Virus record (IMG/VR): IMGVR_UViG_638275430_000001
Span: 22,274 to 86,273 of that record
Direction: 5' to 3' (one strand)
From: a virus
Taxonomy: Duplodnaviria; Heunggongvirae; Uroviricota; Caudoviricetes
Length of the DNA stretch: 64,000 bases
How positions within the stretch are numbered: position 1 is the first letter of the stretch; every line of letters starts with the position of its first letter. Shown one piece after another: positions 3,837 to 64,000 of the stretch. The notes beneath the pieces were generated by a model, which was given only the letters and a program-made list of their open reading frames with translations, ran no database searches and was not told the DNA's origin. Made by a program: the position numbers and the translations under genes.

Positions 3837-3860
3837 AAAGCCACCCGAAGGTGGCTTATT
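3837..3860 (-). terminator. C(UUCG)G hairpin terminator after the 1069-aa fiber gene
   Basis: aaaagccacccgaaggtggctt. Confidence 0.7.
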
Positions 3861-6800: not shown

Positions 6801-7073
6801 TACAAATGGAGTATTCGCAGGTATATCAGTATTAGCGCGATATACCTGTCCGATATGATAAGCCAACGCTCCTGCTTTCCATGACTTAGATTGTGCCCAT
6901 GTTGGAGCATTAGCAACAATTACTTCCTCAGGAATAACAGAACTTGAAATTTTACCATCGGTTCCCTTGGTAACAATATCAGTTGTTGGCGCATCAGCCC
7001 ATGCTCCATTTAGCCACACTTTTGGTGTAGTTGTTTTCGGAGGCTGTAAGACTAATGGAATTCTTTCTGCCAT
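3864..7073 (-). CDS. Tail fiber protein, paralog A (1069 aa) with internal tandem repeats
   Basis: N-terminus homologous to the 964-aa ORF. Three ~40-aa repeats of AN.DIPANT..V..T.GATW..V. Two tandem ~175-aa domains (aa ~405-580 and ~590-765). CTAAATAC upstream. SD caagaggacaataaaaATG. Confidence 0.75.
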   Translation of the reverse strand: MAERIPLVLQPPKTTTPKVWLNGAWADAPTTDIVTKGTDGKISSSVIPEEVIVANAPTWAQSKSWKAGALAYHIGQVYRANTDIPANTPFVISTGGATWQLVTSAAEISNVPSWTAYNPGIDRAIREGEMYYYSGSLYRSRANNVGNEITSTNHFEKLTGFTLPPSYVYTKSYTAGELIRWQGYYVTPNTNIGGNVPFEWGASGQAVTWRPVLFNGYLQYAWRGVMTANGQGFFYGDVIAPTPRSNILYVCVAASAPPIGTETTPLPAYWAPLINDTPIILDNYLSKADDLTYNVWKFASAYKKNTVVVYTDGNTYIANADIPANTLWAVGTTGATWKALGGGAVTDFVANQAYNALQLVRNNGELYISNAAIPANTVFVEGTTGATWKKVGSGGGSVLSDVPYIQGRLTQAANVSNGTVVALSATQSRDMSITSNGINLKANQTYLISTNVYLVSTLGSATFQWSNNNAVNTTGLIGPAPFSGITVTHTANEAGSLSTTFIYSPTVNETIYLKRTGGAVALHEPFSSYSVMQISGSNGSLPIFQGATNTTPGKPGVVAAPVAGAEKKILFGDGEWKDPAELLSSEIPFVSGTISAVAQTVQTTGSLMPIVSVKNYGITCTNNRVQLKANQTYMITTSIHVSGAEYAAFRWRNITDGLYIDPGELLISDASGTSQATGGQGGNFIYTPTKNLEIALVRSRDKTYPSTSDGYSQWTVVQISGTAGAFPIFQGSTATVQGKAGALAAAPLNTQDYVLYGSGEWKPLTAASSTGVVTKGQNPAPNATMGGPNVFLDRQSRINVDGILSTVRIPNYGSSGAVVVMRPQIGESSFSTGGKFDLVSTTTFASGTTSVSPGSQVKIGDYVGVWVAGSVTGTYVANGPTNNLVWLQIGVLPALPLTLTVGGGNTLGLGGIGFDVTTLNSGAVAAYVSPKMAMGTFSNTGASTGYSAIFSSLIDSIGVSGVGTSTLTLPAGKYIFEWQWAMSNGSIADGYYYSTLGSVSNATLTGGIQTISFWPTSSSWKDGDASVGCALVSNTAAGDIKLKIDVTVGNGANAAPSSNRMWWKITKMS

Positions 7074-9802: not shown

Positions 9803-9810
9803 AACAAAAA

Positions 9811-9830
9811 GGGAGCCGAAGCTCCCTTTT
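9811..9830. terminator. Hairpin gggagc-cgaa-gctccc flanked by A-run and T-run (bidirectional)
   Basis: aaaaagggagccgaagctccctttt. Separates the early block from the late structural block. Confidence 0.7.
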
Positions 9831-14683: not shown

Positions 14684-14700
14684 ATTATTTCCTATGAGAA

Positions 14701-14720
14701 AGGGCCCGAAGGCCCTTTAT
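14701..14720 (-). terminator. C(UUCG)G hairpin (agggcc-ttcg-ggccct) between nrdD and nrdG
   Basis: agggcccgaaggccctttat. Possibly an attenuator. Confidence 0.5.
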
Positions 14721-17531: not shown

Positions 17532-17599
17532 GATTTATTCCTCAGCTTTGTTTCGATAGAGCCAATCTTAACATGATGGCTCTGGGCGTCAACTACTTT

Positions 17600-18016: not shown

Positions 18017-18040
18017 AAAAATCCGCCCGAAGGCGGATTC
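18017..18040 (-). terminator. C(UUCG)G hairpin terminator (atccgcc-ttcg-ggcggat) fused to the early promoter UP element
   Basis: aaaaatccgcccgaaggcggatt. Same stem at 31165. Confidence 0.65.
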
Positions 18041-19173: not shown

Positions 19174-19190
19174 TTTTATTCCTTGTTAAA

Positions 19191-19206
19191 AGGGGACGAA
19201 TCCCCT
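19191..19206 (-). terminator. Hairpin aggggat-tcg-tcccct + UUUU between nrdA-b and nrdB (terminator/attenuator)
   Basis: aaaaggggacgaatccccttatc. Confidence 0.45.
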
Positions 19207-19215
19207 TATCAGTTA

Positions 19216-20187
19216 TCAGACCTTACAAACATCACAAGAAGAATCTTGTTCTTCGGTACCATCGGCACCATCGCGAGTGTTCGAGTAATAAAGAGACTTA
19301 ACGCCGTGTTTCTGTGCTCTTGAAATATCTTTCAGAACAACTTTCATCGGGATCTTCTCACCCGGATACACAGCAGGATCATAATAAGTATTTGCACTAA
19401 TCATTTGATCCACAAACTTCTGCATGATAGCTACAATGTCCAAGTAACCCTTCATGCCGTGTTTGGTCATCTGCCAAGCTGTCTCATACTCGCTACCAAG
19501 CATGTCTACCTCAGGCACTAGCTGATTAAAGACACCATCTTTCGATTGCTTGGTGCTCACTAGGCCGCGCGGTGGCTCGATACCGTTTGTGCTGTTGGTG
19601 ATCTGTGAACTACTCTCACAAGGCATAAATGCGCTTAGAGTATCGTTTCGCAGGCCGTGCTGTTTGATCTCAGCTCGCAGCCATTCCCAATCCATTTTCA
19701 GATCATTCGGAACGATATTGTCAACGTTCTTATTGTACCAGTCAATCGGTAACAGTCCATCAGCCCATTTTGTCTTATGATGCCACTCGTTTGCACCGCG
19801 TTCTTTCGCCAGCTCCATAGACGCTACCAAGTTCGCAAACTGCATCATTTCCATGGTGCGGTGAACAAGCTTGTTTGCATTTCCGCTAGAGTAGTTAACA
19901 AAATTCTTCGCCAAGAAATAAGCAAAGTTTGTTACACCCATGCCGAGTGCGCGACGCTTCTTGGCTGCCAGTGCTTGAACGACGGGATAATCCTGATAGT
20001 CAAGCAAGTTATCGAGTGCGCGAACAGCAGCGCGAGCAACGTTTAGGAAGTCTTCATAACCCTCAATTGCGCCGAGATTATACGCCGCTAAAGTGCAAAG
20101 GCTTATTTCCGAAACATCTACCTCAATTTCTACCGTGGTATATTCTTCATCTTCGTATACTTCGTAAATTCTTTCATGTTCGATCAT
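19216..20187 (-). CDS. nrdA: Ribonucleotide reductase alpha subunit, C-terminal fragment (NrdA-b)
   Basis: 323 aa. Begins with a 26-aa extension, then EISLCTLAAYNLGA, collinear with E. coli NrdA from ~aa 455 to the C-terminal CxxC tail (SSCDVCKV). Confidence 0.85.
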   Translation of the reverse strand: MIEHERIYEVYEDEEYTTVEIEVDVSEISLCTLAAYNLGAIEGYEDFLNVARAAVRALDNLLDYQDYPVVQALAAKKRRALGMGVTNFAYFLAKNFVNYSSGNANKLVHRTMEMMQFANLVASMELAKERGANEWHHKTKWADGLLPIDWYNKNVDNIVPNDLKMDWEWLRAEIKQHGLRNDTLSAFMPCESSSQITNSTNGIEPPRGLVSTKQSKDGVFNQLVPEVDMLGSEYETAWQMTKHGMKGYLDIVAIMQKFVDQMISANTYYDPAVYPGEKIPMKVVLKDISRAQKHGVKSLYYSNTRDGADGTEEQDSSCDVCKV

Positions 20188-20887
20188 TTTCTCTAAATCT
20201 CCTATTGAGAATAAATCTGGAGATTCCGGTTTCTTTCATGGCAATGCCTATGCTTGGATATTCAATGCCGCCAATGACAATTTTTATACCGTTCGGTGCC
20301 GGCTTTCCTAAATTAGTTGCTCTTGACTTAGGCACATATTCTTTATTGTGTTCATCATCACCAAGCTTATAGAGTTTCCACCCATGGTGATTACTTCTTT
20401 TACCGCGACAAACTGCACTCATTGTACTGGGATTTAATCCGTGCTTCAAGCAGAAATCTTTTAACCCAGAAACAATGTGTTCTTCTCCCGTAGGAGACAC
20501 GAATCGCCATAGATAAGAAAGCTTTTCTCTTTGAACATCAGACATTGGCTTTCCTTTGTTCGGAGCAATACTTCCAGTTTTGACTTCGGATAAAGCCTTA
20601 GCGAGTTTGACACGATTTGATTCATGCATATATGCATAAACTCTACTATGTTCTTTATTTCCAACTCGCATCATGTTATAAGCGAATATCAGTTTGTTGC
20701 TTTTATAAATCTTAGTCAATAAATGATGAACAACATAGTGTGCTTTAGCAGTTAGATATACCAAATTGTCGTCACTATCATCACCTCCCATACATCTTGG
20801 GATAATATGATGTTTCTCTTTGTAACCGGAGATCTCCGAATTTTTAAATTTGTTGATAATTAAGTCGTGTATTCTCTTATAATTCAT
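20174..20887 (-). CDS. HNH homing endonuclease (MobE-like) inserted between the nrdA fragments
   Basis: HHIIPRCMGGDDSDDNLVYLTAKAHYVVH HNH motif. 237 aa. SD agagggtgcaaatATG. Confidence 0.8.
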   Translation of the reverse strand: MNYKRIHDLIINKFKNSEISGYKEKHHIIPRCMGGDDSDDNLVYLTAKAHYVVHHLLTKIYKSNKLIFAYNMMRVGNKEHSRVYAYMHESNRVKLAKALSEVKTGSIAPNKGKPMSDVQREKLSYLWRFVSPTGEEHIVSGLKDFCLKHGLNPSTMSAVCRGKRSNHHGWKLYKLGDDEHNKEYVPKSRATNLGKPAPNGIKIVIGGIEYPSIGIAMKETGISRFILNRRFRENDRT

Positions 20888-20931
20888 ATTTGCACCCTCT
20901 TAACGTACACGACTATTTAGAGGGTGCAAAT
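20888..20931 (-). promoter_or_regulatory. 13-bp perfect inverted repeat hairpin sequestering the HNH gene SD, with an embedded late-type promoter CTAAATAG in the loop
   Basis: atttgcaccctct ... agagggtgcaaat. The loop contains the reverse complement of ctatttag. Confidence 0.55.
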
Positions 20932-20933
20932 TT

Positions 20934-22355
20934 TTAGTATCTCAGAGACTTATATTGATCCGTCGCTACCATAAGTTTGAACTTATCAACTTCGGACTTT
21001 TTGACTTTAAACAACATCTTTTCTTTCTTTCCCATAGGGACTGTCGGCAGCGCGATTTCGATGCACAGATTACCCATACGAATAGGCTCTTTGTACGGAG
21101 TAGCCGAGTTAACGTTATCAACGAACATCGGATAAATGCGACCGGTGCCAGTTCTTTCTTGTGCGAACAGATTGAACAACTCGGAGGCTTTGATACGCTT
21201 CTTACGACACCAAGGCTCGTTTTCCAGCATTTCGTACAGCTCTTTGAACTTCACCGGATCTTTATAAAAGAGATCGTAAAGCTCGCCGTTTTGAACGTCT
21301 GGACTAAAGAGCGTGATATAGTCGTCATTTTTCAGACGCTCGAAAAACAGCTTGTTGATTTGGATACCGTAGTCAAGCTGGCGAATTCGATTTTCTTCCA
21401 CGCCCTTGTTGTTTTTCAGAACAAGGATTTTTTCAACTTCAAGATGCCACATTGGATAGTAAAGAGTAGCAGCGCCACCGCGTACACCACCCTGTGAGCA
21501 ACTTTTTACCGCAGTCTGGAAATATTTCCAGAACGGAATAATACCAGTGTGGCGAACTTCACCACTTCGAATGCGAGAACCTTCGGCACGAATAGCGCCA
21601 CCGTTGATACCGATACCAGCGCGTTTGCTAATATAGTCAACGATTGAACTTGCGGTAGCGTTAATGCTATCGAGTTCGTCGCCGCTTTCGATCTTCACGC
21701 ATGAGCTAAACTGGCGAGTCGGGGTTCGAACACCAGCAAGAATTGGCGTCGGTAGACTCAGTTTGCCCAACGATGTTACGTCATAAAAGTTTTTAACTTT
21801 AGCGATTCTATCTGTTTTTTCGTCTTGATGCAAGCACATTGCAACAAGCATATACAGAATTTGAGGTGTTTCGTAAATCTGATCGGTACTACGATCTTTC
21901 GCCAGGTACTTCTCTTTAAACTGCATTACGCCAGCATAAGCAAGATCAAAATCGCGATCATGCTTGATATAGGCATTCAGTTCATTGAATTCATCATCTG
22001 TCCATTTGATGGCAAGATCTTTATCATAGATGCCGTCTTGTACCAAGTCAAGTGTGTGTCGTTTCAGATGAATCGGGTCAAACTGATTGTAAACGTCTTT
22101 GCGAATCGCATACATTTGCAGACGAGCAGCGACGTATTGATAATCGGATTGTTCAATAGAGATACGATCTGCCGCAAATTTAATTGCCAGCTTCTGAATG
22201 TTCTTTGTGCTCATGCCGTCGGTGATAGAAGGCATAATACCGTTCAGGATTTCATTCGGATCGATTCGAGTTCCAGCAGTAGCGAATCCCAGAATTTTCA
22301 ACAGCTTTTTCGGCTCAAAATTCTCGGTTATCCCACTTGATTTTCTTACTAACAT
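20934..22355 (-). CDS. nrdA: Ribonucleotide reductase alpha subunit, N-terminal fragment (NrdA-a); ATP-cone plus catalytic core to ..CIEIALPT, then a 34-aa tail
   Basis: Collinear with NrdA aa 1 to ~440. Start MLVRKSSGITENFEP chosen (ATG 22353-22355). The track start 22397 has no SD and lies inside the promoter -10. Confidence 0.8.
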   Translation of the reverse strand: MLVRKSSGITENFEPKKLLKILGFATAGTRIDPNEILNGIMPSITDGMSTKNIQKLAIKFAADRISIEQSDYQYVAARLQMYAIRKDVYNQFDPIHLKRHTLDLVQDGIYDKDLAIKWTDDEFNELNAYIKHDRDFDLAYAGVMQFKEKYLAKDRSTDQIYETPQILYMLVAMCLHQDEKTDRIAKVKNFYDVTSLGKLSLPTPILAGVRTPTRQFSSCVKIESGDELDSINATASSIVDYISKRAGIGINGGAIRAEGSRIRSGEVRHTGIIPFWKYFQTAVKSCSQGGVRGGAATLYYPMWHLEVEKILVLKNNKGVEENRIRQLDYGIQINKLFFERLKNDDYITLFSPDVQNGELYDLFYKDPVKFKELYEMLENEPWCRKKRIKASELFNLFAQERTGTGRIYPMFVDNVNSATPYKEPIRMGNLCIEIALPTVPMGKKEKMLFKVKKSEVDKFKLMVATDQYKSLRY

Positions 22356-22397: not shown

Positions 22398-22440
22398 CAG
22401 TCACAAAGAATGTAAACAACTTACATGTTTACAGAGTTAA
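22398..22440 (-). promoter_or_regulatory. T4-type early promoter for nrdA (GTTTACA-N16-TATAAT) with dyad tgtaaaca..tgtttaca over the -35
   Basis: Minus strand reads ctctGTAAACAtgtaagttGTTTACAttctttgtgactgatgTATAATgaaa. Confidence 0.5.
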
Positions 22441-23407: not shown

Positions 23408-23463
23408 GATATAACCCTCTCTATAAGATAATGCCAGTATACGCTACTGGCATTAGGTGTCAA

Positions 23464-24327
23464 TTAGTTTTTAGCGATAGCCATCACATTTTCAATGACT
23501 TTCAGCCAATGCCGAGCAAGTTCCAGACGCGCTTCATAGTATGCGGTATCATACTTCATCGAACAATAAACTTCGTCCTTGAATTGCTTGATTGCTTGGT
23601 TCCGCTTGTGATCTTCGATTGTGTAGTGTTTCGCACGAGGATCAGGCATAAAGTTCTTGACTTCATCGGTTTCAAGCAGGATGATGTAACCTTTCCAACC
23701 ACTCCAGAATTTGTAGTCTTTAAGGATATACTCGCCATTCAGCTTGACTTTAATCATTTCACACAGACCTTCTTTGAGCTGATCGCGTGTGATTTTACCG
23801 ATAATAACATCGCGCAGAATTTCGCGAGATTCTTCCCATTCAGAACGATTAAAAACACAATGCCGCACCAGATCATTCATATGAGCCTGACGTTCAACAG
23901 CATCGCAATACTCAGATTGCAGTTTCAGAATATAACGCAGCCAGTGACGAGCCAGTTCCAGACGAGCTTCCCAGTATTCATCATTACCTTCGGACTCTTC
24001 ATCTGCTTCTTGATGAAACTGTGCGATGGCTTCATTCAACGGATCGTCCATTTCATCGGGATTACCAATCAGAATGCTGTGACCTTCCCAGCCGCTCCAG
24101 AACTTGTATCCGTTCAAGATCTTTTCATTGCACAAATCTACACCACCGGCCTTTGAGCCGACAATACGACATATGCCAATCTTGCATTCTTCGCGGGTGA
24201 TACGTCCGTCGATGATATCATTCAGTTTCGCTTTGGATACGTCGAAACGTTCTTTGTTCTTGACGTAATATTTTACGTCTTCGGAAACAGTCGGGTCATT
24301 GATGATTCGGGTTTGCAGTTCGTTCAT
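23464..24327 (-). CDS. Paralog family member C (287 aa) with two tandem copies of the domain
   Basis: GRITREECKIGICRIV..YKFWSGWEGH..YWEARLELARHWL, then GKITRDQLKEGLCEMI..YKFWSGWKGY..YYEARLELARHWL. Confidence 0.65.
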   Translation of the reverse strand: MNELQTRIINDPTVSEDVKYYVKNKERFDVSKAKLNDIIDGRITREECKIGICRIVGSKAGGVDLCNEKILNGYKFWSGWEGHSILIGNPDEMDDPLNEAIAQFHQEADEESEGNDEYWEARLELARHWLRYILKLQSEYCDAVERQAHMNDLVRHCVFNRSEWEESREILRDVIIGKITRDQLKEGLCEMIKVKLNGEYILKDYKFWSGWKGYIILLETDEVKNFMPDPRAKHYTIEDHKRNQAIKQFKDEVYCSMKYDTAYYEARLELARHWLKVIENVMAIAKN

Positions 24328-24387
24328 GATTTATTCCTCAGTTGTTTGATGTGGACATCCTATCATGTCCACATTTGCTGTCAATCG

Positions 24388-24819
24388 TTATTGCAAAACA
24401 ATTTTAGTTTCGATGAAATTGATCCAGTGACGAGCAAGTTCCAGGCGAGCTTCCCAGTACGGATCATTGTCACCGTATTCAGACTCTTCCAAATCTTCTT
24501 CTTCATGAAACTGTTCGATTGCTTGAGGCAGATGATCGTGATACCGACGGGACTCTTCGGTAGTTTCACCGACATACACACAATAGCCTCGCATACCACT
24601 CCAATATTTGTAGCCTTCGAAGACGGAATGATCTGTCAACATATCGCAGTTAATCAGATTGCACAAGCCACCGCGGCACTCATATCGAGTAATGCGACCT
24701 TCTACAACATCTTTGAGGATGTAATACGCTTTCATAATATTTGCATTCATAAACATGATTATTTCCTTAGCAACTAGATACGATAAAGCCAGTCTACGCG
24801 AGACTGGCTTAGGTGTCAA
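24388..24819 (-). CDS. Paralog family member D (143 aa)
   Basis: GRITRYECRGGLCNLI..YKYWSGMRGY..YWEARLELARHWI. Confidence 0.6.
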   Translation of the reverse strand: MTPKPVSRRLALSYLVAKEIIMFMNANIMKAYYILKDVVEGRITRYECRGGLCNLINCDMLTDHSVFEGYKYWSGMRGYCVYVGETTEESRRYHDHLPQAIEQFHEEEDLEESEYGDNDPYWEARLELARHWINFIETKIVLQ

Positions 24820-27928: not shown

Positions 27929-27947
27929 TTATTTCTCCTATGAAAAA

Positions 27948-27966
27948 GGGCCCGAAGGCCCTTTGT
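27948..27966 (-). terminator. C(UUCG)G hairpin (gggcc-ttcg-ggccc) + U-run
   Basis: aaaaagggcccgaaggccctttg. Confidence 0.6.
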
Positions 27967-28209: not shown

Positions 28210-28263
28210 GATGTATTCCTCAGTTGTTTGGCTTCAATGTGGACATAATATCAGGTTCGAAAA

Positions 28264-28623
28264 TCAGTGCAAGCACTTTTTCATGAATTCATAATGTTTT
28301 TGTTTGTTGAAGGTATAGCGAAATTCAGGACGAGCCACGATACCTTCAAACAACACCGGAGATTTTGCAATCACGGTAACATCATATCCGACCAACTCAC
28401 GCTTGCAATGAACATTCGGTACCTTGATTTCGGATTCACGATTGATCGGAACGTACATCGGAACACCATAAACAACTTGCACAGCAAACACTTGCACCGT
28501 TTTCTTGATCATCGCCGGAATAGTGAAAATCTCTTTGATCTTCACGCCCTCGATATGGCCGTTTGCGATCATCTGCTGATATACTGCCATTGACGCTTTC
28601 ATGTCTTCTTTCTTGATAAACAT
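28264..28623 (-). CDS. Hypothetical protein (119 aa)
   Basis: Early promoter/leader upstream. Confidence 0.5.
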   Translation of the reverse strand: MFIKKEDMKASMAVYQQMIANGHIEGVKIKEIFTIPAMIKKTVQVFAVQVVYGVPMYVPINRESEIKVPNVHCKRELVGYDVTVIAKSPVLFEGIVARPEFRYTFNKQKHYEFMKKCLH

Positions 28624-29244: not shown

Positions 29245-29314
29245 TATGAATTCCTCAGTTCTTGTTTCGATGTGGACATATTATCAGGTCCACACCCAGC
29301 GTCAAGCAATTTTC

Positions 29315-30137: not shown

Positions 30138-30191
30138 AACGACTCCGTTTTGTATCTGGGACCAATATAACATGGTCCCAGATAGAGTCAA

Positions 30192-32811: not shown

Positions 32812-32881
32812 GATGTTTTCCTCATTGATTTGATAGAGCCATTATCGCATGGCTCTGGGCGATAGTCAACAACTTTTTTAA

Positions 32882-33642: not shown

Positions 33643-33706
33643 GATACTTTCTCTTTGTTGTCTTGATGTGGCCCATTATAACAGCAATGAGCCACACAGT
33701 CAAGCA

Positions 33707-34638: not shown

Positions 34639-34779
34639 TTAGTTCACCATATTATGAAAAGCGTTAACACAAACAATCAGAGCGAACAGCGCCCGCATTT
34701 GATCCGGTTCAGCAAAGAATACACCATAAGCGCCAAGCAATGCAATGCAAATCATCACAATTTTATTTTTCTTGTTCAT
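34639..34779 (-). CDS. Small membrane protein (46 aa; MNKKNKIVMICIALLGAYGVFF...)
   Basis: ATGA overlap with the upstream gene stop. The longer track ORF 34639..34938 overlaps another gene. Confidence 0.4.
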   Translation of the reverse strand: MNKKNKIVMICIALLGAYGVFFAEPDQMRALFALIVCVNAFHNMVN

Positions 34780-35517: not shown

Positions 35518-35598
35518 GATATTTTCCTCAGTGTTTGTGTTGCGTCTTGATGTAACCATAATAACAGGTCCGTACCAAGACGCAAGAACTTTTTTCAA

Positions 35599-35832
35599 TT
35601 AATCCAAATAAACTTTTGGACCATAGTGCTCGAAATCCTCACGGATCATGAACTCACATTCTTGTCCGTTTCGTTCTTCGTCATGGACATAGGTACAAAT
35701 CCACTCCCAAGCACCATCTTCACTCCGTACTGGCTTAGTCTTGCAAACAAAACGCGCAACATGAAAGCCGTATACTTCACAGAACGGAGTACCGACTTCC
35801 AGCTTCTTTACACAATCGTCAATCCTACTCAT
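35599..35832 (-). CDS. Hypothetical protein (77 aa)
   Basis: SD gaaggggtttttgaATG. Confidence 0.45.
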   Translation of the reverse strand: MSRIDDCVKKLEVGTPFCEVYGFHVARFVCKTKPVRSEDGAWEWICTYVHDEERNGQECEFMIREDFEHYGPKVYLD

Positions 35833-36252: not shown

Positions 36253-36322
36253 GATTATCTCCTCGCTTCAATATGGATATAATAACAGGCTGATTCCGGT
36301 TTGCAAGCACTAAAACGAAAAA

Positions 36323-36342
36323 AGCACCCGAAGGTGCTTTTA
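36323..36342 (-). terminator. C(UUCG)G hairpin terminator (agcacc-ttcg-ggtgct) + U-run
   Basis: aaaagcacccgaaggtgcttttatttt. Confidence 0.65.
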
Positions 36343-37764: not shown

Positions 37765-37820
37765 GATAATTTCCTCTCTAAAAGATAGGCTCATTCTACA
37801 CGAACGAGCCTAGTTGTCAA

Positions 37821-39021: not shown

Positions 39022-40265
39022 ATGTCAAGCGTCCACATCGTATCTTTCAGCCAATCTGGATACTTTCTACCGTCGCTGGTATCAGTCTCGTCTAGTGTGT
39101 TGCAATAAGCGATTTGACTTTCAATCCGAGTTCGGTATTCTTCTCCCAAAAGCTTCACCAATCGCTCTATGGCAGCGTTTCTATTGTCCAGCATATACTC
39201 ACAAGCGTATATACGAGAAACGATTGTACCAGCGTTCTGGCCTGCTTCCAGCATACGTTTCACGATGCCTTCTAGTATGTTACCGTCACCACACGACGGC
39301 TCAAAGAAAGTCGAACTAGAATTTGCGTCATCGATATCGGTATAATCCAACATCTGATTTACGAGTTCAATAGGAGTAAAGAACTCCGCAGTTTTCTTTT
39401 GGCGATCTCGCTCAATCTTGTCGGTAAACAATCGGGTGTCACCAACGACTTGCGTTTTGTGTCGCTTGCCGCCATAGTAATCTTCGATCACTTCCTGCAC
39501 TCTTGGTCTGATATCAAGCATATCGAATTTTTCGAATAACTCGTCATCAGTCCAACGCTTCGTCATGTCTACCCATGGGATTGCATGTAGCTCGCCACTG
39601 TCTAGGTGAACATTCATCTTATACAGAGAAAGCATAAATCTTGCAAAGTCCGTTTTCAGATAAGCAATAAAATTCTCTGCTTCTTCTAACGTTCTAAACG
39701 CAAAATTTTGACCGCGCTTTGGCATTTCAGTCGTCGGAACGTAATCAACTGGGAACATCGTAAAGAAGTCGCTATTAAAGCGTTTGCCAGCTTCTGGAGG
39801 ATGTCCTCTAACACTTGCTATAGTGACGTAGTGACTTGCTCCTATAACTTCGCCAGAGCATTTCATGTGCGCTACGCTCGGATATTTCATCTTGTCATAG
39901 ACATCAACACACCAATCTCCAATCATATTGATTTTGTTTAGCGGCAGTCTTGCGTCATAATAACCAGAAACGTTAATTAGACCGGATTTCATTGTTTTGT
40001 CAATAACGGTTATACTAAGCGGAGTAAGAAATCCAGCTTTGAAAACGGCGTTACCGTCAAACAAATGAACACTCGTTGTATATTCTTTCATATTGCCGAG
40101 TAGTTCAGCAACTCGCTTAGTTTGTCTAGTTGGCTTTCTGTTTACAAATGGTCCGGACGGATGCACCGCGACGGTGACATCACATTTCTTTACACCTAGA
40201 TTAACAAAGTCAACGTGCAAACCCGCACTATATGGCGGGTTTGCGATCATGTAATCAAAGTGCAT
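39018..40265 (-). CDS. DNA N6-adenine methyltransferase, beta-class (motif IV NPPY N-terminal; motifs X/I C-terminal)
   Basis: 415 aa. MIANPPYS near the N-terminus. TAEFFTPIELVNQML...FFEPSCGDGNIL near aa 300-330. Confidence 0.65.
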   Translation of the reverse strand: MHFDYMIANPPYSAGLHVDFVNLGVKKCDVTVAVHPSGPFVNRKPTRQTKRVAELLGNMKEYTTSVHLFDGNAVFKAGFLTPLSITVIDKTMKSGLINVSGYYDARLPLNKINMIGDWCVDVYDKMKYPSVAHMKCSGEVIGASHYVTIASVRGHPPEAGKRFNSDFFTMFPVDYVPTTEMPKRGQNFAFRTLEEAENFIAYLKTDFARFMLSLYKMNVHLDSGELHAIPWVDMTKRWTDDELFEKFDMLDIRPRVQEVIEDYYGGKRHKTQVVGDTRLFTDKIERDRQKKTAEFFTPIELVNQMLDYTDIDDANSSSTFFEPSCGDGNILEGIVKRMLEAGQNAGTIVSRIYACEYMLDNRNAAIERLVKLLGEEYRTRIESQIAYCNTLDETDTSDGRKYPDWLKDTMWTLDI

Positions 40266-43221: not shown

Positions 43222-44099
43222 TACGCTTCCTTAAAGCTATATTTGTCCAGAACTTGAGTCATGATAGTGATTTTCGGTTGCAAAGTCAACATCACCTCAT
43301 GGTATTCTGCATATGCTTGTTGTTGTTCGGCTACAGCCAGTTCAAGCTGTGCCTGTGCTTGTGCCAACAATTGCTTGCACTGCTTAACACTAACACTCTT
43401 GGTTTCAACAACACGCTCCAATTTTTGAAGTTGAGCGAAACCAGGCAGAACTTTTTCGAAATCGATATCAAAAACATCTTGACTTTCAACTTCTTTTTTG
43501 CTCATTTCTTCCAGAGTTTGAGCGTTTTCGTTCCTGGTATTCTTATAAATGATATCAAACCCGACTGATTTTTTATCAGTTCTCGGCAGATAATCTTCAC
43601 CGATTTTGCGCTCAGGAACAGTGATCACAACGCGGCTCTTGTATTGAGTTGGATCACAATGCCACACGCGCATACCGGTTTCGCCGTCTTTGAATCCCCA
43701 GTTCTCCATAGAGAAGTGTTTGCCGATGTTCGATTTCAGCAGCTTCTCTGGGACTTCGGATTTGAAATACAATGCGAGTTGTGTAGGAGAAATCACACGA
43801 TATTGCCAACCGCTCGTTTGAAGACTCGGCCAAATCGGACGCAGTTTCTCGTACTGATCATATTCTGCATTGATGTTGTTATATAACGGTTTGGTAAAGA
43901 AACTGTCGGTGCCGAACATCGCCACGAATGCGGATGCAATGTTAACCAGATTGGTGCTAGAAAACATATTGCCTTCTCGCAGGCGAGTAAGGGTTTTGCC
44001 GTCTACAGTCACGTTTTCGCAGAACAGATTTTGTTCCATACGGATAAGAAAGTTCTTGAATTTCTTATCCTTGAATACTACTTTACGAGCTTCTTTCAT
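43221..44099 (-). CDS. Paralog pair member 2 (292 aa): ..ENVTVDGKTLTRL.. N-terminal domain plus Gln/Ala coiled coil
   Basis: SD gatggaggcttaataATG. Confidence 0.5.
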   Translation of the reverse strand: MKEARKVVFKDKKFKNFLIRMEQNLFCENVTVDGKTLTRLREGNMFSSTNLVNIASAFVAMFGTDSFFTKPLYNNINAEYDQYEKLRPIWPSLQTSGWQYRVISPTQLALYFKSEVPEKLLKSNIGKHFSMENWGFKDGETGMRVWHCDPTQYKSRVVITVPERKIGEDYLPRTDKKSVGFDIIYKNTRNENAQTLEEMSKKEVESQDVFDIDFEKVLPGFAQLQKLERVVETKSVSVKQCKQLLAQAQAQLELAVAEQQQAYAEYHEVMLTLQPKITIMTQVLDKYSFKEA

Positions 44100-44365: not shown

Positions 44366-44899
44366 CTAATATTCGGTGTCAAGCACTTTTCTAGCGTGAT
44401 CCACCTTTTTTACACATTGAATCAATTCGCTAATCTTGTCTTTCTTGATAACAAGCGTGGTAAACTCACCACCGCTGTTCATATCAAAGATAACATCTTG
44501 CTTAGACGTTCTAACACCAAGCCTAGAGTTCTTGATCTTCATTCTGCCAACCTGTATGTTAGCTGATTTGAATCTCGACTCGGTAACAATCGAATCAGAC
44601 CGTTCCATGAAACTAACGAATCGATCATGATCTACTCGATTCGGCAACTGAAACCAAACTTTCTTATTGAAATTCTCAGTTACCTCCATAACAGTCGTGT
44701 GATCTTTGATATAAAAAGAGATTGTGTAAAACTGATTTACACCTACACCGGAACAAGCAACAACTTCCTTATTACCGGCGTTTAGTCTTGAATAGAACTC
44801 TTGATCACTCACAATAGCAGCGTTGGCAGATGTTACTGCCAACGCGATTGCAAGATTACTCCAGAGATTCTTCACATTCTTCAGGCAGAACGGAATCAT
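44366..44899 (-). CDS. Secreted protein (signal peptide; start MIPFCLKNVKNLW...AVTSANAA)
   Basis: SD gaggaagaggtgctgtgtgATG. Signal-peptide-like N-terminus. Confidence 0.45.
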   Translation of the reverse strand: MIPFCLKNVKNLWSNLAIALAVTSANAAIVSDQEFYSRLNAGNKEVVACSGVGVNQFYTISFYIKDHTTVMEVTENFNKKVWFQLPNRVDHDRFVSFMERSDSIVTESRFKSANIQVGRMKIKNSRLGVRTSKQDVIFDMNSGGEFTTLVIKKDKISELIQCVKKVDHARKVLDTEY

Positions 44900-50465: not shown

Positions 50466-50522
50466 GATGATTTCCTCTTGTTTTGATGTGACTCATTATA
50501 CAGTAACGAGCCACTCCGTCAA

Positions 50523-51931: not shown

Positions 51932-52083
51932 TTCCTCAGGGTAGTTGATTCATCAAACTTGACAAAGCTTCGGCATACGCTAGGCCAAATCCCATCATCA
52001 TTATAAAGAATGCGATTTTCATTTCTTTATCCGGTTGTCTTGATGTGGACATCTTATCAGGATGTCCATACATGTCAATCAAA

Positions 52084-52812: not shown

Positions 52813-52891
52813 GATATTTTTCTCAATTTGTGTTTCGATGTGGTTATATTAACAGAACTAGATTTCGATGCAAGCACTTTCTGGAAAATAA

Positions 52892-52909
52892 AACCCGCCG
52901 AAGCGGGTT
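52892..52909 (-). terminator. C(UUCG)G hairpin (aacccgc-ttcg-gcgggtt) + U-run, fused to the promoter
   Basis: aaaacccgccgaagcgggttt. Confidence 0.6.
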
Positions 52910-53130
52910 TAGTCTTTCTTGGATGCCAACATTGCTGCCATCAGCATTTCGTGGCGCTTTTGTTCTTCTTTCTCTTTGCGCAGATTCGGCAGAATCAGCA
53001 ACAGAATGATGGAGAAAAGCGGAGTAAGGAAAATGGTGATGATTAACCAACCCAGAACAGAACGTCCGCGAGAGTTTGCCAGTACCAGTGTAACGATCAG
53101 AAACACTAGCCACCCGATTACGATTGTCAT
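52909..53130 (-). CDS. Small membrane protein (73 aa, 2 TM)
   Basis: Hydrophobic. SD ataaaggtaattaaATG. Confidence 0.45.
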   Translation of the reverse strand: MTIVIGWLVFLIVTLVLANSRGRSVLGWLIITIFLTPLFSIILLLILPNLRKEKEEQKRHEMLMAAMLASKKD

Positions 53131-55259: not shown

Positions 55260-55337
55260 GATGTATTCCTCAGAGTTTTAGTTGAGATTGTTTCGTCTTG
55301 ATGTGGCTATAGTATCAATAGCCACATCAGCGGTCAA

Positions 55338-57197: not shown

Positions 57198-57265
57198 AAT
57201 TCATTTCCTTTAGTTAGTTTCGATGTAGCTATATTATCAGGTTCATATCCGGTGTCAACAAAAAA

Positions 57266-57286
57266 GGCACCCGAAGGTGCCTTTAT
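57266..57286 (-). terminator. C(UUCG)G hairpin (ggcacc-ttcg-ggtgcc) + U-run, PeSL-like with the promoter
   Basis: aaaaaggcacccgaaggtgcctttattttt. Identical stem at 63980. Confidence 0.65.
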
Positions 57287-63533: not shown

Positions 63534-63604
63534 GATGTTTTCCTCAGAGTGATTGCTTCGTTTCAATGAGGCCATTATTACATGGCCTCCAGTTCATGTC
63601 AAAC

Positions 63605-63907: not shown

Positions 63908-63979
63908 GATGTTTTCCTCAGTGTTTCGTTGTTTCGATGTGGACATCATAACAGGCTGATTTTTGATGTCAACAAAAAA

Positions 63980-64000
63980 GGCACCCGAAGGTGCCTTTTA
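63980..64000 (-). terminator. C(UUCG)G hairpin terminator (ggcacc-ttcg-ggtgcc) + U-run, PeSL-like
   Basis: aaaaaaggcacccgaaggtgcctttta. Confidence 0.6.

Follow-up and report, generated by a model that had tools for sequence, protein, structure and literature searches.

The early promoter of the Aeromonas phage gene Aeh1p052 is wrapped in an inverted repeat that spans its -10 box, which raises the question of why a stem-loop is built into a promoter and on which molecule, DNA or RNA, it would act. The window, the whole stretch of 64,000 nucleotides that was analysed, matches Aeromonas phage Aeh1 (AY266303.2/NC_005260.1) at 100% identity. Aeh1 belongs to the T4-like "Schizo-T-even" phages (Straboviridae, Cinqassovirus). 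The window covers record positions 22274-86273, and adding 22273 to a window position gives the record position. The window contains a hyperplastic early region with ~100 small genes, mostly hypothetical and all on the minus strand. No tRNA genes were found in the window. Window ~19175-22355 holds nrdA-A, mobE and nrdA-B, in which the HNH homing endonuclease gene mobE splits nrdA, an arrangement that we take to be unrelated to the inverted repeats. The interruption of nrdA by mobE has reportedly been described by Gibb and Edgell.

The sequence that the first-pass annotation gave for 24349-24374 is present as stated. On the minus strand, the focal cassette reads TTGACA (24384-24379), gcaaATGTGGACAT (24374-24365), ga, TAGGAT (24362-24357), ATGTCCACAT (24358-24349) and caaacaacTGAGGAataaatcATG (24327-24325), with TAGGAT overlapping the right arm. 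In full, it is composed of TAA, cga, TTGACA, gcaa, ATGTGGACAT, ga, TAGGAT, GTCCACAT, caaacaac, TGAGGA, ataaatc and ATG (Table 1). The spacing from the -10 box suggests that transcription starts at the A at about 24350, in which case the hairpin would be absent from the promoter's own transcript.

The focal core, from -35 to +4, recurs identically in phage phiAS5 (~34700-34745), including TTGAC, the ATGTGGACAT/ATGTCCACAT dyad and the unusual -10 box TAGGAT. The phiAS5 copy precedes an unrelated 63-residue gene, for which a blastp comparison with Aeh1p052 gave nothing significant (best E 4.9). In Ah1, the cassette of the Aeh1p052 ortholog (the 24362 cassette) has no dyad, so individual dyads are dispensable. 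Together, the two comparisons indicate that cassette alleles move between loci.

The same arrangement precedes ~28 minus-strand genes. Each cassette is sequentially composed of an A-rich tract, TTGACA, 16-17 nucleotides, (TG)nTAnnAT, a CACATCGAAAC leader, GAGGA and ATG. A profile built from 24 obvious cassettes was used to scan the window on both strands. It matches 28 minus-strand cassettes at E<0.01 and ~35 at E<10, and yields no convincing cassette on the plus strand of the window. The earlier figure of more than 30 genes was thus slightly generous. The description of the cassettes as early promoters joined to a leader holds: the 28 cassettes carry TTGAC(A)/N16-17/TAnnAT with an AAAAAGT-type tract and often TG at -15/-14, forming a sigma-70-type early promoter followed by a leader and a Shine-Dalgarno (SD) sequence. 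In the cassettes with a dyad, the upstream stop codon ends at -35 to -48 and the ATG lies at +19 to +43 after a GAGGA-type SD. The conserved SD context had also been offered as the source of recurrent EENIM peptides in over-extended reading frames, and GAGGAAAACATCATG indeed encodes E-E-N-I-M.

Two further features of the cassettes were observed. The initial transcribed stretch, (C)ATCGAAAC(A/G)A, is common to the Aeh1 group of Aeromonas phages and to coliphage RB49, despite the distance between these phages and their hosts; examples in the window lie at 24343-24350 and 29265-29275. This leader might serve as a 5′ leader, as start-site context or as part of the homology used in recombination. 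In a subset of cassettes (28250-28290, 35563-35603, 52851-52887 and 36284-36300, minus strand), (a)aaGTGCTTGCA replaces TTGACA. The replacement contains TGCTT, the core of the T4 MotA box, and none of these cassettes carries a dyad. Conservation of MotA is limited to T4, RB69 and 44RR and does not extend to Aeh1 (Nolan 2006). The subset may simply have a weaker -35 box (TTGCAC) or may represent a distinct temporal class.

The first-pass annotation knew of no such described feature, which is wrong. Promoter-early stem-loops (PeSLs) have been published for T4-like phages (Arbiol et al. 2010, PMC2839356; Comeau et al. 2014, PMC4122927). The PeSLs of RB49 and phi1 were described as early promoters of the sigma-70 consensus, with the upstream stop codon in an AT-rich tract ahead of the promoter, a stable stem-loop, and an SD and start codon at the 3′ side (Arbiol et al. 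2010, Genome Biol Evol 2:140, PMC2839356). The stem-loops most often lie between -35 and -10 or overlap -10, and one of them (PeSL211/210, of a subclass that may not be nested at -10) cut lacZ read-through as strongly as rrnB T1 (PMC2839356). Later work added T4/PST and KVP40/nt-1 to the phages with PeSLs; in these, the stem immediately precedes the promoter (Comeau et al. 2014, Genome Biol Evol 6:1611, PMC4122927). In the earlier paper, Aeh1 appears only in passing, with "PeSL-like sequences" near g43 (Arbiol 2010, PMC2839356). Early promoters of Aeh1 were predicted by Nolan et al. 2006, who do not mention inverted repeats, hairpins or dyads.

The dyads have a defined geometry. With each cassette anchored on its own -10 box, the longest perfect hairpin between -29 and +10 is at least 7 bp in 12/28 cassettes and at least 8 bp in 8/28, with a maximum of 12 bp (55299-55329 and 30153-30184). 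Exchange of left and right halves among cassettes gives such stems in 3.2% (at least 7 bp) and 1.5% (at least 8 bp) of cases, and shuffling of the spacer in 1.3% and 0.4%, respectively. The stem lengths are bimodal, being either 3-4 bp or 7-12 bp. Left arms occupy -28 to -15 within the spacer and right arms -11 to +4, with the axis at -11.5 to -14; the loops are 5-13 nt long and hold all or part of the -10 box. Folded as RNA, the dyads have free energies of -10.7 to -21.5 kcal/mol and z-scores of -2.3 to -7.7.

A census of perfect inverted repeats in the window (at least 8 bp, loop 3-14) counts 36, compared with ~12 in shuffled sequences. These comprise 9 promoter dyads, 11 terminators with a UUCG tetraloop and another 16 near the chance level. 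Chance self-complementarity of the conserved motif, the case that had been named as fatal to the proposal, is ruled out by the swap and shuffle controls together with this census: dyads are in clear excess (12/28 compared with 1-3%). The eight pairs of arms listed earlier were all recovered, exactly or within a few bases.

Table 1. Parts of the focal cassette and dyads of other cassettes, with positions in the window.
Feature	Position	Strand	Stem	Remarks
Stop codon TAA of upstream gene Aeh1p053	24388..24390	-		3 nt before the -35 box
-35 hexamer TTGACA	24379..24384	-		Cassette upstream of Aeh1p052
Left dyad arm ATGTGGACAT	24365..24374	-		Inside the 16-nt spacer (-24..-15)
-10 hexamer TAGGAT	24357..24362	-		TG at -15/-14; first 4 bases in hairpin loop, last 2 in right arm
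Right dyad arm ATGTCCACAT	24349..24358	-		-8..+2
Shine-Dalgarno and start codon of Aeh1p052 (287 aa)	24325..24339	-		GAGGA 24339-24335; ATG 24327-24325
Dyad AGAGCCA/TGGCTCT	17558..17583	-	7 bp	9 bp in PX29
Dyad TAATGCCAGTA/TACTGGCATTA	23429..23455	-	11 bp	Loop 5
Dyad AAGCCAGTCT/AGACTGGCTT	24786..24810	-	10 bp	Loop 5
Dyad TGTGGAC/GTCCACA	29271..29294	-	7 bp	9 with G·U
Dyad TATCTGGGACCA/TGGTCCCAGATA	30153..30184	-	12 bp	Orthologous gene with a different stem in each of five phages
Dyad AGAGCCAT/ATGGCTCT	32835..32856	-	8 bp	
Dyad TGTGGC(tc)/(gg)GCCACA	33667..33696	-	6 bp perfect	Longer with G·U
Dyad TAGGCTC/GAGCCTA	37786..37812	-	7 bp	
Dyad GTGGCTC/GAGTCAC	50488..50514	-	7 bp with one G·U	RNA dG -14.6
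Dyad TGGACATC/GATGTCCA	52046..52068	-	8 bp	10 bp in Ah1 via paired changes
Dyad TGATGTGGCTAT/ATAGCCACATCA	55299..55329	-	12 bp	
Dyad GAGGCCAT/ATGGCCTC	63568..63589	-	8 bp	

Several inverted repeats lie elsewhere in the window. A strong promoter-like site, TTTACA-16-TATAAT (11/12 match), has an 8-bp palindrome, TGTAAACA-N7-TGTTTACA (22411-22433), overlapping its -35 box TTTACA. The palindrome is located upstream of nrdA-A, just after a terminator-like hairpin, and its geometry is unlike that of the -10 dyads. Perfect 10-bp inverted repeats outside the -10 position of cassettes are found at 6818-6848, 40217-40244, 44042-44070 and 44820-44845. The repeat at 40217-40244 (GCAAACCCGC/GCGGGTTTGC) lies directly upstream of TTGACT, a -35-like hexamer, and may be another unit of stem-loop and promoter.

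Homologous regions of PX29, Ah1, avDM12-TAAL and phiAS5 were scanned with the same profile. Protein-anchored scans of IMG/VR for relatives beyond Aeh1 gave only Ah1 and PX29, and GenBank phage records were used. Stems of at least 7 bp are present in 5/13 cassettes of PX29, 9/19 of Ah1, 7/22 of avDM12-TAAL and 11/24 of phiAS5. Orthologous cassettes were grouped by the N terminus of the downstream protein, and the grouping is hence independent of the dyad. Whether a locus has a dyad is largely conserved among orthologs, while the sequence of the stem is not. The gene beginning MKNQSRVF has a dyad on the same axis in 5/5 phages, with the stems CTGGGACCA, TCTGGGA, GGGAGCAT, GATGGGAG and GAGGGCAT. 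TAGGCTC/GAGCCTA of Aeh1 (37786..37812) becomes GGTCCC/GGGACC in the avDM12 ortholog through three compensatory pairs within conserved flanks. In addition, AGAGCCAT/ATGGCTCT is replaced by AGAGACAT/ATGTCTCT both in the avDM12 ortholog and in the PX29 copy, which is on an adjacent gene.

At the stem positions of Aeh1, the pairs that have changed on both sides in orthologs comprise 15 Watson-Crick, 2 G·U and 4 mismatched pairs. Twenty cassettes, selected by orthology, were aligned without gaps and scored over a 12-pair helix. Paired cells make up 70.4%; shuffles give 57.6% (0/500), and displacing the partner by 1-3 columns gives 30-43%. The covariation score is 0.393, compared with 0.170 in shuffles (0/500); the pooled cassettes are orthologous and hence non-independent. 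The compensatory changes among orthologs in five phages bear out the view that structure is selected rather than a fixed sequence. Part of the apparent covariation is due to whole cassette alleles shifting between loci, not to stepwise compensatory mutation. Cassettes contain 11/36 of the blastn match ends in the comparison with Ah1, where 2.0 are expected, and 12/32 in that with PX29, where 1.2 are expected; intergenic DNA generally attracts breakpoints.

The distribution of the dyads is related to that of a second stem-loop. Inverted repeats of the UUCG class are located at 884-903, 3838-3857, 9807-9830, 14699-14718, 18020-18039, 27945-27964, 36320-36341, 52891-52910, 57263-57284 and 63976-63999. 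On the minus strand, each has a UUCG loop, a tetraloop of the C(UUCG)G type, with a T run after it, and several lie directly upstream of the -35 box of a cassette. Five cassettes adjoining such terminators were scanned in the window, and none has a dyad at -10. The window holds 13 cassettes with a dyad, 5-6 with a UUCG terminator just upstream of -35 and 0 with both. Pooled over five phages, 105 cassettes include 49 with a dyad, 23 with an upstream terminator and 1 with both (Fisher p=2e-6, for cassettes that are not independent); descent of cassette families, rather than function, could account for part of this exclusivity.

The position of the upstream stop codon separates the same cassettes of the five phages. 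Where the stop lies at -59 to -33, abutting the -35 box, a dyad is present in 42/52 cassettes. Where it lies at -60 or further upstream, a terminator is present in 19/30. When the upstream reading frame overlaps the promoter, 14/18 cassettes have neither.

Wobble pairs at the ends of the stems were also counted. Among 44 unique dyads from the five phages, allowing G·U extends the stems by 68 bp and allowing A·C by 17 bp, compared with a background of 75 and 109, a sense-strand bias that rests on a few recurrent stem families. The dyads of the window alone give 13 for G·U and 8 for A·C, and only the pooled set is informative. The pooled asymmetry favours RNA, since a structure in duplex DNA would show none. 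The first-pass annotation had offered two candidates, an RNA hairpin in read-through transcripts and a cruciform. The former fits better, given the near-exclusivity with terminators, the dependence on stop position and the sense-strand G·U bias.

Two assignments of such an RNA hairpin were considered and rejected. The U tract is mostly missing, 8/11 window dyads having 0-2 U among the 8 nt that follow the stem, and for this reason the dyads are not called as intrinsic terminators: a terminator scan of the window at 22-34 kb called none of the dyads there terminator-like. They are therefore unlikely to be classical intrinsic terminators, as judged from sequence. Nor do they match a known RNA family, as a search of the whole window against Rfam 15 at the gathering threshold gave 0 matches.

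The cassettes are, in our judgement, probably the PeSLs of Aeh1, with a nested hairpin that would act on read-through RNA from the upstream gene. Each would contain a strong host sigma-70 early promoter (an A-rich UP-like tract, TTGACA, 16-17 nt and an extended -10 box) fused to the ATCGAAAC leader, which is followed by an SD and a start codon. A stem-loop is nested in the promoter of ~45% of cassettes: its left arm lies in the spacer, its right arm covers -8 to +4, and its loop holds or adjoins the -10 box. The putative start is the A of a conserved CATC, 7 nt past the -10 box, and the right arm ends at -1 to +4. The promoter's own transcript would thus begin within the right arm or past it, and the hairpin could therefore form only in read-through RNA of the upstream gene or in the DNA itself. 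In read-through RNA, it would serve as an attenuator, an insulator or a 3′-end stabilizer of the upstream message, and it might attenuate or pause transcription, impede 3′ exonucleases or direct processing. At longer intergenic spaces, the canonical UUCG-tetraloop terminators would do the same job. With the upstream stop codon directly next to the -35 box, only bases of the spacer and the discriminator are free, which would account for the position of the hairpin within the promoter. The near-constant axis would follow from the same constraint, since the -35 box, the TGn-extended -10 box and the leader are all constrained and free bases exist only between them.

Three other readings bear on the same observations. 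The location of the dyads, with symmetry over -10/+1, is that of a classical operator at which a dimeric phage or host repressor would shut off early promoters. This is highly improbable, as at least 10 unrelated arm sequences occur in one genome (GAGGCCAT, AGAGCCAT, ATGTGGACAT, CTGGGACCA, AAGCCAGTCT, TAATGCCAGTA, TAGGCTC and others), orthologs alter both arms with pairing kept, and fewer than half of the cassettes carry a dyad. There is no conserved half-site, and the diversity of the arms effectively refutes an operator. The palindromes might also be functionless by-products of templated (quasi-palindrome) mutation or of gene conversion among recombining cassettes. Recombination is intense in T4-type phages, the movement of whole alleles between loci means that both arms are inherited together, and single dyads can vanish, an example being the 24362 cassette, whose Ah1 ortholog has none. 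A process of this kind accounts poorly for bimodal stem lengths, for an inverted-repeat excess that, terminators aside, is confined to one promoter position, or for five different stems kept at one orthologous site. Three independent compensatory pairs within otherwise conserved flanks, the same geometry in the distant coliphage RB49 and the systematic dependence on upstream stop position and terminator presence also speak against it, and we consider a non-adaptive origin quite improbable.

The third reading places the function in DNA. A cruciform or single-strand hairpin would tune the promoter, with the -10 box in its loop, or the dyad would be a PeSL recombination site, either a mini-circle crossover or a recognition site. 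The tight placement of the axis (-11.5 to -14 relative to the -10 box), the enrichment of breakpoints between related phages at cassettes and the identical alleles before unrelated genes are in line with such an element, as is the stability of the single-strand DNA hairpins (-7 to -12 kcal/mol). In addition, one mini-circle crossover was mapped within the loop of a stem-loop, and a stem-specific protein was speculated upon (Arbiol 2010, PMC2839356). Loops of 5-13 nt with arms of 7-12 bp would nevertheless make cruciform extrusion costly, recombination needs only the ~50-bp homology of the cassettes, and the axis is explained by where free bases are located. A DNA element predicts neither the near-exclusivity with upstream RNA terminators nor the loss of dyads where the upstream reading frame overlaps the promoter, and duplex DNA cannot explain a strand-asymmetric wobble bias. 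A role in DNA is therefore unlikely. One more reading, which we hold to be rather unlikely, is that the nested hairpins are a distinct, U-tract-independent insulator for genes packed so closely that the 3′ structure of the preceding gene has to be carried by the promoter, acting as a factor-dependent stop or processing site or as a PeSL mini-circle crossover site. Were this true, a general rule would apply to T4-like early regions: a long space takes a terminator, a stop abutting -35 takes an embedded hairpin and an overlapping reading frame takes nothing.

The preferred reading, a PeSL hairpin on read-through RNA, adds modestly to what is published. The covariation statistics, the near-exclusivity of terminators and dyads and the stop-codon rule are new with respect to the accessible sections of the PeSL papers, in which the Aeh1 PeSLs are likewise uncatalogued. 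PeSLs are extended, with statistics, to the Aeromonas phage group of Aeh1, Ah1, PX29, phiAS5 and avDM12. As a structure, the stem-loop nested in the promoter is conserved across genera, with the ATCGAAAC leader and the arm geometry common to coliphage RB49. An action on upstream transcription was asserted in the original papers with limited data (PMC2839356, PMC4122927); the near-exclusivity with terminators and the dependence on stop position argue, in a concrete and testable way, for an action of the stem on read-through RNA. The cassettes are not a new kind of element, and they can guide the annotation of transcription units in T4-like phage genomes and the prediction of module boundaries.

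Short DNA hairpins at promoters are also known from phage N4, whose early promoters are used by the virion RNA polymerase as extruded hairpins with 3-nt loops and have no sigma-70 boxes. The Aeh1 cassettes resemble N4 promoters in that a short hairpin at a fixed position defines the promoter, and differ from them in their near-consensus -35 and -10 boxes and loops of 5-13 nt. Like intrinsic terminators, the dyads would form a stable GC-containing RNA hairpin just past a stop codon, and they alternate with UUCG terminators in equivalent positions; unlike intrinsic terminators, they mostly have no U tract.

The closest likeness is to the PeSLs. Compared with those of T4/PST and KVP40/nt-1, the Aeh1 cassettes are likewise composites of promoter and terminator, in a class that includes the Schizo-T-even branch to which Aeh1 belongs. 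The cassettes with UUCG terminators at 57263-57284 and 63976-63999 have the same layout, whereas the dyads are nested around -10 instead of lying just upstream of the promoter. The RB49/phi1 PeSLs share with the Aeh1 cassettes the sigma-70 promoter, the position of the stem, the upstream stop codon in an AT-rich tract and the SD with ATG at the 3′ end. A stem-loop lies within or adjoining the promoter in Aeh1, 12/28 cassettes having a 7-12 bp stem around -10 and 5-6 more a UUCG terminator upstream of -35. Both are associated with hyperplastic regions of small ORFans, here ~100 mostly hypothetical small genes on one strand. Both also mark boundaries of insertion, deletion or replacement between close phages, represented here by the cassette breakpoints against Ah1 and PX29 and by the phiAS5 allele, though intergenic DNA attracts breakpoints. 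In a 50-kb scan of RB49, 4/14 stringent promoters have stems at exactly -22..-15/-8..-1 (GGGTGTAT/ATACACCC, GGGAGTAT/ATACTCCC) and two have stems between -35 and -10. The RB49 promoters carry the same ATCGAAAC leader as Aeh1, and the anatomy of the RB49 type examples thus agrees with that of the Aeh1 cassettes in both stem position and leader. The stems of RB49 are often of the form Gn...Cn, unlike the diverse stems of Aeh1. By this sequence anatomy, the cassettes are assigned to the known PeSL class of T4-like phages as its Aeh1-group members.
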